Source of the DNA: a virus
Lineage: Duplodnaviria > Heunggongvirae > Uroviricota > Caudoviricetes
Reading direction: 5' to 3' (one strand)
Length of the DNA stretch: 6,473 nt
IMG/VR virus record: IMGVR_UViG_2523533516_000004
A program made the position numbers. How positions within the stretch are numbered: the stretch's first letter is position 1; the number at the start of each line of letters is the position of its first letter. Below, piece after piece: positions 3,001 to 6,000 of this stretch.

Positions 3001-6000
3001 TACGTAGCAGGTCACCTATAATGTTGTGCTGCACTGGCTGCACTGGGGCGATATTTGGTTTTTTGTCCACTTCCCTTGCAACTGCCTGCCAGATGCCATT
3101 TTTTACAGTTACTACCCCCTGGTTTTTTAACTTCCATAGAGTGTCAATAACGTCATTCAAATCAATATTGAGACCTTTAGAAATACTTTCGGCTGATGCT
3201 TTTCCTAATTTGTTCAATTCTGTGAGCACTGCGTTCATTTTTTTCTCCTGATATTTTAATGTCGGTGGGGCTGTTATACGGTTAGTGAGGTGTCAGCTTC
3301 TTCTACCAGCTTTTCCAGTTCATCCAGCTTTCGGGAAAGAATTTCACCAAACAGATGAAGTTCTGCATCTGCTGTAATCGGGATTGGAACAAATCGTATT
3401 CCACTTCTGGCAAGTTGATTTGCGATTTCCAGACACTGCCTTAATTCAACTGGTGATGCCTTTGTCAACGTCGTTTTTTCGCTCATTGGTTTTCTCCAGA
3501 AATTTAACAATACCCGGAACCATCTCAATGGATGGTGTGCCGCATTGGTTACCCCATACATCAAATCCATGCGAGGTGTGGCGGGCGAACAGTTCTATCC
3601 GGGGAACATCGCCAAGAAGTTGCACAAGCTTTTCTCGAGCCATATCCGGCTTGCGGGAGTGATCAAGGCGCGGTGCAGTGAATGACTGGATTATTCCGGC
3701 GTTAATGCGTTCGGGCAGATTTCCTTTCACTGCAAAAAGGCAGTCTTCGCTGTTAGCGCGAGTGGTGCTACCCATACCCATGACCAGCTTGTCGGTCTGT
3801 CTTTTCCCGCATTTGTTCCAGGTTAATCCTTTCATCGTCACCAGACGAAAGCCCCACGCTTCTACAACCTTCAATGCTTCAAGTGGTTGTGTAGGCACCC
3901 ACCACATAGACAACAGGCAATTATCGGCTGCCAGTTCCCATACCGGGAGGCGGCAGATATCCAGAAGACTCATGACCGGATATTTAAAACTTGCACCGCG
4001 TTGACCATCGGTTGCTTTGTCGCGGAATGTCCAGGGGGGATCTGCGTAAATGAGGGTGTATTTTTTCGTCATAGCGCGTTTTCAAACTCATCAATGTAAA
4101 GTCCTGCTTTAATCAGTCGGCGACGGCGTTCGGCCTTTTGCACGTATTCCTCGCGACAGTTTTTTGCTGCGTGTTCACGGCTTCTGCGACTGAATGGAGG
4201 AACGGCATTGCGTGAGCGAGGTGTGTCACGACGAGGATTTGATTCGAGGGAGAAAAAGCGATCAACGATTCCGGTGTCTGTGGTGAATGGTTCTGAAGCC
4301 TTTATTTTCACAACCTTACTGCCCTTTGTCAGGCCGCGAGCTACCTTGTTGAACTCGCAAAGTGAAACACCAAATTTCTCTGCTATTTCACTGCCAGTAA
4401 CAGGACGACCACGAGACTGAATCATCCAGGTGACGCGTTCTTTTAACCCACGGAAGGCACCGGGCCTTCCAGAACGCCTGTAGAAAGCGATCTGTTTCAA
4501 ATTTTTGTCTCCAGATATGAAAACCCCGACGGGATGTCGGGGATGGTAGGGGAAGTTACAGGCTTAACGAGAAGCCTTTTCGGGAATTTCGATCTGACAA
4601 TCTTGAAATATCCTGTAGCGTGCGGCGCATTTCTTCCGTCAGATGCTTGAAGGCGTTAAATTCAGCGACAGCGGCGTCAACGTTATAGCCTTTGCTGTGT
4701 AGCTCATTGAGGATGCGCATAGTTGGGCTTGGCATGTCGAAGAGCACAGAAACGTCCAGGTTAAGAGTTTTTCGATCAACATAGCTCATCATGGAGTAGG
4801 GGTGGTGCTCTGAAAACCACGATAGAGGGTAGTTGATGTTCATTGGTGCAGGTAAAAGGCTCTGGCGAAGTTTCTTTTCGCACTCGATGAAGTATCGGCG
4901 GATCTGGCGGCCTTTTTCGTTACGCTCAACCATCGCCAGTTCTTTGGCTGTGTCGAGAGTTAGGTGGTAGTCCTTGCTACGGCGATCACCTCCTCGCCCT
5001 TTGGTTTGCCCATTTTGGCAAATCAAAATATAGTCCTGGCTTTCAATGAATCCATATTCAGCAATGCGTTCTTTAACCCAGTGCGCGAACATTCTGCCCA
5101 CACCAAGAAAAGAGTGTAGATCACGAGCGTTAACTAGAAGAATTGTTTCGTTGTCGATAGTGCCGTTGAATACGGGGATGAGTTGACTGGTCATGATGAC
5201 CTCCTTTGAAGTTTTAGTTAGCAATCACCAGTTAGTGGCTGGTGATCGGGTGTCAACTAGAGCCTTCAAAGATGCTCCGGGCATATTCCCCTTGCGGGTA
5301 TTGTATTACGCCTCTCCACCCGACCTTTGTACGGATGTGACTATGCCAAATTGCAGGCATAAAAAAGCCGCAAAGCTATCGGGTGCGGATGACCGCTTTG
5401 AAGTTCTAGTGCGGTCAGTATGCGATAGCTCTGGCGGATTTGTCAAATCATGTAGGCCTTATCTTGCTGTAAGCCGCGCCATTCGGGCTTTTCCCCAGAT
5501 TTGGGGGAAACTATCTGCGAAGTATTCACCTTTGACGGCAAGTTGCAGGTTAGCCACGGTTAACCTCCTGCGGCGGTTCTGGTAGCGGCATCCAGTGTGT
5601 TACCTGCTCAACACCATTGCCCGGCTTAATCGTTGCTTCTCCTCGCCGAAAGGTGCTTCCGGTATAGCGTGCGGAGCATATTAGCGGCTCAACCAGATCA
5701 CTATCGAAATTCACCGAAATAAGTACGTTCTGATTCTTTTTCGGCATTCGCTCACTACAGCTTATCCAACTATCCGGAGTTACCGGATAGTTGCCCGATA
5801 GTGCATTCTGCTCCAGTGATGCTTTTACAAACCACGCTGCCTGAACTATAACGCCATGAATCCAGCGCAAATCAGCATCGCGATCTTTCTTTTTCATCTT
5901 TTCGCCACTTAAGGCCTTGCTTATGTGGCTGCGTACCAGGTCTTCATGTAATTCCTTCGCCTCCTCAATGGTGAAACCACCAGGCAGAAGAGCCGGAGTT

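Follow-up and report, generated by a model that had tools for sequence, protein, structure and literature searches.

The 3' end of an MT-A70 family methyltransferase gene and the start of a small gene of the DUF1382/lambda Orf63 family overlap by 41 nt, out of frame, in the 6,473-nt stretch of phage DNA that we analyzed (hereafter, the window), which is the int/wrbA end of a Stx phage of the phi191/P13374/PA8 type. This overlap is a real, stable and ordinary junction of two Stx-phage genes, and it is already known, being present in the RefSeq annotation, with both families described. We consider it very probably a genuine but incidental terminal overlap between neighbors in one leftward Stx-prophage operon. 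The overlap (positions 3446-3486, minus strand) runs from most of methylase codon 196 to codon 208 and the stop, and takes up codons 1-14 of the small gene. The two genes share a strand, with the small gene beginning inside the methylase coding sequence; taking the 70-aa ORF as reference, the methylase reads in frame +2. The preliminary description had reported a 70-aa ORF overlapping the methylase 3' end by 41 nt in another frame, and both coordinates and sequence are exactly as it claimed.

The methylase gene (3446-4072, minus strand) encodes 208 aa, its translation ending in ...DVWGNQCGTPSIEMVPGIVKFLEKTNERKNDVDKGITS*. Residues 5-176 match Pfam PF05063 (E = 5e-22; 79 bits against a cut-off of 23.9), a family for which 1235 homologues were found, and a search of the PDB returned MT-A70 and METTL3 matches. 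The DPPW motif is located at residues 11-14; P12 and W14 are invariant in an alignment of 27 homologues (A1), and D11 nearly so. The protein is identical at 207 of 208 residues to phiPA8 gp5 (M.EcoPA8orf6770P), a 16S rRNA methyltransferase subunit that together with PNB-2 prefers 16S rRNA as its substrate (PMC10810198). Judged by these sequence matches, the window methylase is the MT-A70 catalytic subunit of the PNB-2-dependent 16S rRNA methyltransferase type of Stx phages. The O104:H4 enzyme M.EcoGV is highly similar to the PA8 enzyme, a link that is a statement of PMC10810198 and not a comparison with the window sequence. The 143-aa PNB-2 gene (4069-4500, minus strand) is the counterpart of phiPA8 gp6, the partner subunit of the methylase in that phage (PMC10810198), and shares 4 nt with the start of the methylase gene (ATGA, 4069-4072). 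Upstream of the block formed by the PNB-2, methylase and Orf63-like genes, a terminator scan found an intrinsic-terminator-like hairpin followed by a T run (CCCCGAC-ATCCC-GTCGGGG; 4524-4542, minus strand), an exact match to the terminator in PMC10810198. A DUF1627 gene (2885-3238, minus strand) comes next downstream of the small gene in the same operon. The gene order suggests that the leftward operon holding the methylase and the small gene is expressed early.

The small gene (3274-3486, minus strand; ATG at 3484-3486, stop at 3274-3276) encodes a 70-aa protein that begins MSEKTTLTKASPVELRQC... and is annotated in RefSeq. It matches Pfam PF07131 over profile positions 1-59 of 60 (E = 1.4e-28; 99.2 bits against a cut-off of 27) and PHROG 292 (E = 1.5e-29). 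It also matches the lambda Orf63 structure PDB 8DSB (E = 3.6e-11, about 50% identity), with residues 8-60 aligned to chain residues 16-68. What had initially been noted as a plausible protein composition is thus a DUF1382 match far beyond chance. The small protein and lambda Orf63 have the motifs ASP..R..E.A..LA..G.RFVP.P in common, and an alignment of five sequences (A2) has 15 invariant columns, which by construction include the window protein. The context also fits the family, whose small proteins (about 60-70 aa) come from leftward operons of lambdoid temperate phages close to exo, xis and int, as the gene is 70 codons long and lies upstream of, and on the same strand as, the DUF1627, xis and int genes. 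By sequence comparison, the small gene is a paralogue of lambda orf63 (DUF1382). The preliminary description had allowed that the small ORF might not be conserved in related prophages; it is a conserved member of the DUF1382 family. Lambda Orf63 is a small dimeric protein (PMC10869804), and lytic development is favored by Orf63 in lambda and in Phi24B.

Regarding the 3' end of the methylase, the domain had been thought to end at DVWGNQ, with an extension of some 30 codons behind it. The ORF does continue, but DVWGNQ is not the end of the conserved part: among the 27 homologues, conservation runs through WGNQCxxPxVxLxPG, with P186 nearly invariant, and in the window lineage it extends to about F191. 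The lineage-specific tail consists of only about 17 residues (residues 192-208, LEKTNERKNDVDKGITS; 3449-3499, minus strand) and is predicted to be disordered. In an AlphaFold2 model of moderate quality (mean pLDDT 61), residues 181-190 have a pLDDT of 83 and residues 195-208 fall below 50. Beyond the conserved part, the tails of the 27 homologues differ in both sequence and length (about 6-35 aa), and the extension seen here is not routinely carried by homologous methylases, as had been considered. The methylase TGA stop (3446-3448, minus strand) takes its T from the end of GTT (Val13) and its GA from the beginning of GAA (Glu14) in the small gene, and falls within the conserved S-P-V-E-L-R segment of that gene. 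On the side of the small protein, residues 7-17 align with the N-terminal 11 residues of lambda Orf63, which NMR shows to be unstructured (PMC10869804). Constraint is probably low in both of the overlapped protein segments, the methylase tail being predicted disordered and the Orf63-like N-terminus aligning with an unstructured segment. However, KASPVELR, an N-terminal motif that is unstructured in lambda Orf63, shows strong conservation across the family, which means that constraint is not absent from the overlapped codons of the small gene.

The junction recurs widely. The same region was matched in 187 phage records, with an identity of at least 99% in 107, and in 304 complete Escherichia coli genomes, of which 258 cover at least 80% of the query; among the E. 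coli matches listed, PGAP gives the names "DUF1382 family protein" and "MT-A70 family methyltransferase". RefSeq records NC_028660 and NZ_CP009050 annotate precisely these two overlapping coding sequences. The 41-nt overlap is unchanged across hundreds of independent assemblies, made by many laboratories on many platforms. That the two genes truly overlap, one of the two options originally offered, is borne out by this identity across assemblies and by the membership of the small ORF in a conserved family. When 13 haplotypes were compared over 799 nt, 40 sites were variable, none of them within the 105 nt spanning the methylase tail and the overlap, where about 5 substitutions would be expected (for these 13 closely related haplotypes only). 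This absence of polymorphism is compatible with dual constraint, and likewise with recent common ancestry.

To place the junction among its relatives, we surveyed the region upstream of DUF1382 genes at 146 loci, which yielded 43 distinct junctions. A 4-nt ATGA overlap accounts for 26 of the 43, involving many unrelated upstream genes, including MT-A70, Dam (PF05869), DUF7446 and an annotated ASCH-like protein. Five junctions are of the lambda type, in which orf60a reaches 28 nt into orf63, and three are of the window type, with one additional indel variant. At the lambda locus, in the exo-xis region, the downstream gene is likewise a DUF1382/Orf63 gene of the same leftward operon, and the upstream gene likewise enters it out of frame and ends in the conserved V-E-L-R codons. 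It differs in that orf60a is not a methylase, the relative frame is +1 rather than +2, the stop is TAA, and orf63 has a canonical ATG and lacks the six extra codons of the window gene. The phiPA8 gp5/gp4 pair is essentially the same locus, with no difference of substance: the annotated 41-nt overlap is the same, gp4 is the small gene, and the order is PNB-1, terminator, PNB-2, methylase and 70-aa gene. The text of PMC10810198, which deals with the methylase and PNB-2, contains none of the terms "overlap", "gp4" and "DUF1382". In Phi24B (record HM208303), vb_24B_4c is the same gene from residue 19 on (49 of 53 identical over 19-70) and is followed by DUF1627; the window gene is its full-length counterpart. 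We take vb_24B_4c to be gp06 of PMC8614690, there the second and less similar paralogue of Orf63, an equation made in this analysis. Unlike the window, Phi24B and many Stx1a phages have lost about 2.1 kb between CAACTTGCC repeats (window positions 5537-5545 and 3409-3417), a deletion that took out AntB, PNB-2 and the methylase together with codons 1-18 of the small gene. The 5' end of the Phi24B gene is consequently chimeric, and the gene that it overlaps is instead a DUF551 gene. ZX5/YDC107_2 also has adjacent MT-A70 and DUF1382 genes on the same strand (82% identity for methylase residues 1-187, 50% for DUF1382). However, they meet in a canonical 4-nt ATGA junction within ...GCAGCATGA, the methylase carries another, longer tail (...NAPLSPTDNQGRERAA), and the upstream partner is PerC-like, not PNB-2. 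In L011, the closest distinct lineage, the methylase is 89% identical but ends in a different stretch of 17 aa, and PNB-2 is 91% identical. A DUF1382 gene is missing there, and DUF1627 follows the methylase directly with a 17-nt overlap; the CTGGAGAAAAC motif is common to L011 and the window, but is in another frame in L011. Other MT-A70 homologues adjoin unrelated genes, with 4-nt overlaps or gaps. An obligate MT-A70-DUF1382 partnership was rejected, considering that the contexts of both families vary.

Concerning its translation, the small gene has a GGAG Shine-Dalgarno (SD) sequence (3494-3497, minus strand) within the coding sequence of the methylase tail, 7 nt before the ATG, which confirms the earlier placement of its ribosome binding site in the methylase extension. 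Pairing with the 16S rRNA 3' end gives -6.4 kcal/mol at a spacing of 6-7 nt, which matches the strength at neighboring genes; of 20-mers drawn at random from the window, only 8% attain -6.0 kcal/mol. Folds of 141 and 81 nt showed no significant RNA structure masking the start (z = -0.67 and +0.43, respectively), and there was no Rfam match in the overlap. With such a site and a local fold no more stable than that of shuffled sequence, the downstream start does not appear unable to work alone, and obligatory coupling through RNA structure was rejected. Since the small gene has its own GGAG site, strict dependence on translation of the methylase is unlikely. The idea that ribosomes must finish the methylase for the small ORF to be translated thus finds no support; the methylase stop is 38 nt downstream of the small-gene ATG. 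We infer that the small gene starts at ATG 3486 on its own SD sequence, with upstream ribosome traffic helping loosely at most. Two further candidates were discarded. A programmed frameshift fusing the methylase to the Orf63-like protein was dismissed, as the -1 frame reaches a stop two codons further on (CGA CGT TGA); an A_AAA_AAC heptamer is present in the methylase frame (3473-3479), but the fusion would need a +1 shift. For an internal promoter of the small gene, there was a single weak 9/12 match (3528-3501) that would put the transcription start at or after the SD sequence, in a promoter scan that found 5 sites against 2.0 expected.

A short lineage-specific linker of about 60 nt joins the conserved bodies of the methylase and Orf63-like genes. 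To the Orf63-like gene it supplies the GGAG site along with a new ATG and six additional codons at the N-terminus. Because the linker contains no stop in the methylase frame, the methylase reads 13 more codons to its first in-frame stop, the TGA provided by the conserved Val-Glu codons of its neighbor. The overlapped methylase residues probably have no specific function.

Other explanations concern where the small gene begins and whether its boundaries are real. It is unlikely that the functional start is TTG at codon 7 (3466-3468, minus strand), which would shorten the overlap to 23 nt and leave translation mainly to termination at TGA 3446-3448 and reinitiation after a back-scan of about 20 nt. 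Leaving aside the window lineage and deletion derivatives of it, every DUF1382 homologue examined has an ATG start that aligns with this codon. Residue 7 is also the first one covered by the Pfam and PHROG profiles, one contig (L033/L089) has ATA in place of ATG 3486, and the geometry at lambda orf60a/orf63 is equivalent. However, the SD sequence of TTG is weak (-2.5 kcal/mol, against the value for the correctly spaced ATG 3486), ATG 3486 is kept in all contigs of the window lineage but one, and PGAP picks it. Barely credible is a boundary artefact caused by a frameshift or sequencing error, as the preliminary description had alternatively proposed, or a true small gene in the form of a 98-aa ORF from ATG 3570. 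The 98-aa version is annotated in the original P13374 record, and 1-nt indels do occur in this region in a related lineage; in that lineage, however, PGAP marks the methylase as frameshifted, which points to a derived, broken state. An error is further contradicted by the sequence being identical across over 100 phage records and over 100 complete genomes, and by the conserved PSIEMVPG segment, which shares the reading frame of the methylase core; read in any other frame, the methylase tail bears no resemblance to other methylase tails. As for the longer ORF, ATG 3570 has no SD sequence (+1.5 kcal/mol), and neither the Pfam nor the PHROG profile covers its 28 additional residues. We therefore rejected both.

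It is also quite improbable that the overlap has been selected, either because it couples production of the Orf63-like regulator to that of PNB-2 and the methylase, because the holoenzyme needs the overlapped tail in order to form, or both, with the two proteins jointly controlling prophage induction. In its favor, three separate arrangements put DUF1382 after a nucleic-acid methyltransferase gene (the window, ZX5 with MT-A70, and the locus L052 with Dam, PF05869), the PNB-2 and methylase genes are themselves joined by an ATGA overlap, and the tail and overlap lack polymorphism among the 13 closely related haplotypes. In addition, Gong et al. (PMC10810198) observed that non-STEC variants without the last 27 aa are also without PNB-2, and suggested a possible role for the C-terminal region in forming the holoenzyme; given this suggestion, part of the methylase tail could be functional. 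The comparison with L011 narrows that idea, as it points to residues of about 182-194, not to the overlapped residues 195-208. Against selection, most MT-A70 homologues have other genes downstream and most DUF1382 genes have other genes upstream. L011 retains PNB-2 and the methylase with a different tail and without DUF1382, Phi24B-type phages retain the DUF1382 gene without the methylase, and one lineage has frameshifts in both the methylase and DUF1382 genes. In the phiPA2 experiments, the methylase alone complemented the phenotype. There is a similarly slim chance that PNB-2, the methylase and the Orf63-like gene, with their 4-nt and 41-nt overlaps and their position downstream of one terminator, form a co-translated module, in which the overlapped tail would aid PNB-2 binding, the ratio of Orf63-like protein to rRNA methyltransferase would be fixed, and the two would jointly set the rate at which Stx prophages are spontaneously induced.

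We attach little weight to the overlap as a discovery, since it is annotated in RefSeq, the families have already been described, and long overlaps at gene ends are nothing unusual within lambda's exo-xis region. For annotation, the correct coding sequence is the 70-aa one from ATG 3486, not the older 98-aa ORF of P13374. For genetic work, editing the 3' end of a phiPA8 gp5/M.EcoGV-type gene also alters the start of an Orf63-family gene. Considering that this family is reported to be pro-lytic, C-terminal tags on the methylase, truncations and IS629-type insertions could affect its neighbor as well.

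An Stx prophage sits in wrbA; the window covers its left end, and all of the genes there lie on the minus strand. In coordinate order these are the wrbA remnant (1-579), the integrase (576-1910), a DUF1233 excisionase (1939-2238), a DUF4222 gene, a DUF1627 gene (2885-3238), the 70-aa DUF1382 gene (3274-3486; hereafter the small gene), the MT-A70 methyltransferase (3446-4072; hereafter the methylase), a 143-aa PNB-2 homologue (4069-4500) that overlaps the methylase through an ATGA, an AntA/AntB-like gene (4556-5224) and a DUF551 gene (5550-6473), with a terminator hairpin at 4524-4542 that exactly matches the one quoted in PMC10810198. 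The methylase ORF ends in ...DVWGNQCGTPSIEMVPGIVKFLEKTNERKNDVDKGITS and a stop, in frame +2 relative to the small gene, and the two genes share 41 nt (3446-3486). The small gene opens with the ATG at 3484-3486, and a GGAG (3494-3497) lies 7 nt 5' of it. The preliminary description of the overlap was therefore accurate. The overlap also contains a slippery-type heptamer, A_AAA_AAC, in the methylase frame (3473-3479); the -1 frame closes two codons past it, and a fusion of methylase and small protein by -1 slippage is therefore ruled out.

Two further features of the window were recorded. At 576-579, one ATGA is common to the integrase stop and the ATG of a truncated hybrid wrbA ORF, in which the phage end replaces the approximately 13 N-terminal residues of WrbA. 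Transcripts of int could allow translation of this remnant, but its flavin-binding loop is probably lost. Between the DUF551 and AntB-like genes, minus-strand positions 5236-5325 give a full-length Rfam match to sRNA-Xcc1 (RF02221; 65.4 bits, against a gathering score of 53).

The overlap is real but ordinary, and nothing in it is new in kind: it is already present in annotation, and both genes are already in the literature. Of 187 phage records that match the region, 107 do so at no less than 99% identity, and P13374 (the O104:H4 outbreak phage), phi191 and others are 100% identical; 304 complete E. coli genomes also match it, and in 258 of these the match spans most of the query. In RefSeq/PGAP, a "DUF1382 family protein" CDS of 213 nt overlaps an "MT-A70 family methyltransferase" CDS of 627 nt, and GenBank KP682374 (phage PA8) carries the same two overlapping CDS. 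An older P13374 annotation used the longest ORF for the small gene, 98 aa from the ATG at 3570.

The methylase belongs to the MT-A70 family (Pfam E = 5e-22 over residues 5-176; DPPW at residues 11-14) and is identical at 207 of 208 residues to phiPA8 gp5 (M.EcoPA8orf6770P). Gong, Chakraborty and Koudelka reported that the phiPA8 enzyme increases the frequency of spontaneous prophage induction, that it binds PNB-2, which the adjoining upstream gene encodes, in a 1:1 complex, and that the holoenzyme prefers 16S rRNA in 30S subunits as its substrate; they called M.EcoGV of O104:H4 highly similar to it (PMC10810198). The methylase domain had been placed as ending at DVWGNQ, with an extension of some 30 codons beyond it. 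However, 27 aligned homologues (59-99% identical) remain conserved past WGNQ through an xPxVxLxPG motif, in which P186 is nearly invariant; beyond this motif, the tails diverge fully in sequence and length (approximately 6 to 35 residues). Approximately 12 residues of the supposed extension are thus conserved, and only some 17-20 are lineage-specific. The alignment served to build an AlphaFold model of moderate quality (mean pLDDT 61), in which residues 182-191 form a beta-hairpin (pLDDT approximately 83) and residues 195-208, the overlapped part, have a pLDDT below 50. The C-terminal region was also poorly modelled by Gong et al., who proposed that the last 27 aa may be required for PNB-2 binding (PMC10810198).

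The most informative comparison is with a related lineage (L011/L012) whose methylase and PNB-2 are 89% and 91% identical to the window proteins. Here, the methylase sequence past ...VKF differs from that of the window (VKEKTTKLSGENNGNCT), and there is no DUF1382 gene; the methylase instead extends 17 nt into DUF1627. CTGGAGAAAAC forms the SD region in both lineages, and the two methylases read it in different frames. This comparison suggests that any PNB-2-binding role would fall to residues of approximately 182-194 rather than to the overlapped ones. Other MT-A70 homologues occur in nin-like or other settings, with unrelated neighbours across 4-nt overlaps or gaps.

The small gene is a member of the DUF1382 family (E = 1.4e-28, residues 7-65 aligning to profile positions 1-59) and also matches PHROG 292. 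Among solved structures the top hit is 8DSB (E = 3.6e-11, approximately 50% identity), lambda Orf63 solved by NMR as an intertwined dimer in which 11 N-terminal and 9 C-terminal residues are unstructured; Orf63 reportedly favours lytic development (PMC10869804). In Phi24B and many Stx1a phages (L008, L166, L158), approximately 2.1 kb between two CAACTTGCC repeats (5537-5545 and 3409-3417, minus strand) is absent. AntB, the methylase, the 143-aa gene and codons 1-18 of the small gene are lost with it, and the start of a 32-aa ORF (MANLQLA..., 5459-5557) is fused to residue 19 of the Orf63-like gene. Phi24B vb_24B_4c, annotated as "similar to DUF1382", is identical to the window protein at 49 of 53 positions from residue 19 on, and we equate it with the paralogue named gp06 in PMC8614690. 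It follows that the second Orf63 copy of Phi24B is a chimera produced by deletion, and that the window carries at full length a gene already in the literature.

Translation of the small gene had been suggested to depend on ribosomes finishing the methylase, which was not borne out. For the ATG at 3486, the SD duplex is -6.4 kcal/mol at a spacing of 6-7 nt, which equals the value for the 143-aa gene and lies near the DUF1627 value (-7.4), whereas TTG 3468 and ATG 3570 score -2.5 and +1.5; local RNA folding around the start was no more stable than that of shuffled sequence. We infer from this that the small gene would initiate independently at ATG 3486 on a polycistronic mRNA, with passing ribosomes at most holding the start site open. 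Obligatory translational coupling is unlikely for this pair, given the small gene's own SD and a start that RNA structure does not hide; with the methylase stop lying 38 nt 3' of the ATG, termination-reinitiation is a minor route at best. According to a review, ribosome profiling confirmed the lambda exo-xis ORFs as expressed genes (PMC8614690).

Is the overlap incidental? Among 53 full-length window-type loci, comprising 13 haplotypes with 40 variable sites in 799 nt, the 105 nt covering tail and overlap contained no substitutions, which is suggestive evidence against an incidental overlap but may also reflect shared ancestry. The KASPVELR motif, conserved among DUF1382 proteins though unstructured in lambda Orf63 (PMC10869804), likewise counts against an overlap free of constraint. 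Both genes appear to be decaying in one lineage (phi419, strain 2015C-3101 and several viral contigs; L009, L039-L041 and L156), with a C deleted in the DPPW codons (approximately 4034, codon 13) and an A inserted in the overlap at 3463-3465 (GACAAAGG to GACAAAAGG); PGAP gives a frameshifted methylase and a 52-aa DUF1382 remnant. In one contig (IMGVR_UViG_2579779049_000012; L033/L089), ATA replaces the ATG at 3484-3486, changing Glu to Lys in the methylase tail and leaving TTG at codon 7 as the sole possible start. It follows that some lineages can dispense with both genes, in agreement with the reported non-essentiality of exo-xis genes (PMC10869804).

We surveyed the junctions upstream of DUF1382 genes at 146 loci from viral and genome collections, yielding 43 distinct junction sequences. 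Outside the window lineage and deletion derivatives, the start was always an ATG aligned with window codon 7 (TTG). A 4-nt ATGA overlap, usually within ...GGTGCAGCATGA, occurred in 26 of the 43, behind varied genes (MT-A70, Dam PF05869, DUF7446, an annotated ASCH-like protein, orf60a-like and several without a Pfam match). In the lambda type (5/43), orf60a has ATGC rather than an ATGA stop and enters orf63 by 28 nt, ending at a TAA formed by the conserved GAG-TTA-AGA codons; in the window type (3/43, plus one indel variant), GTT-GAA of the same V-E-L-R segment forms a TGA. The others show a small gap or an 8-nt overlap, or represent the deletion form. The conserved S-P-V-E-L-R codons contain a stop in both alternative frames, so that an upstream gene without its own stop terminates there; the end of the overlap thus looks like a by-product of these codons rather than a designed feature. 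Between methylase ...PG and the A-S-P codons, phages with the ZX5-type MT-A70/DUF1382 pair carry an unrelated 87 nt in place of the 60-nt window linker, which supplies the GGAG, the ATG and six additional codons (MSEKTT). Lambda orf60a/orf63 is the closest precedent in mechanism and family, while phiPA8 gp5/gp4, the same locus as the window, is closest in sequence.

The survey also returned an Enterobacter MAG (L052) in which a Dam-family (PF05869) methyltransferase, unrelated to MT-A70, is ATGA-joined 5' of DUF1382; thus, two methyltransferase families recur directly 5' of Orf63-like genes. Low-coverage contigs of unrelated assemblies (L059-L072, including Bradyrhizobium, Kitasatospora, Paenibacillus, Oceanobacillus and Shewanella) also carry lambda orf60a/orf63 DNA in which the junction is identical, most likely as contamination by lambda control DNA.

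That short conserved boundary sequences at lambdoid gene junctions serve as recombination points in module exchange is a long-standing proposal, for which PMC3029335 cites Clark et al. (2001) and Susskind and Botstein (1978). A Klebsiella phage (L007) carries an identical 17-nt GAAGGCGGTGCAGCATGA on either side of its DUF1382 gene (1490-1515 and 1685-1705), and variants of ...GGTGCAGCATGA connect DUF1382 to many unrelated upstream genes; both look like such boundary sequences. The ...GCAGCATGA junctions fit this picture of module exchange, with the window-type junction as a non-canonical variant of it.
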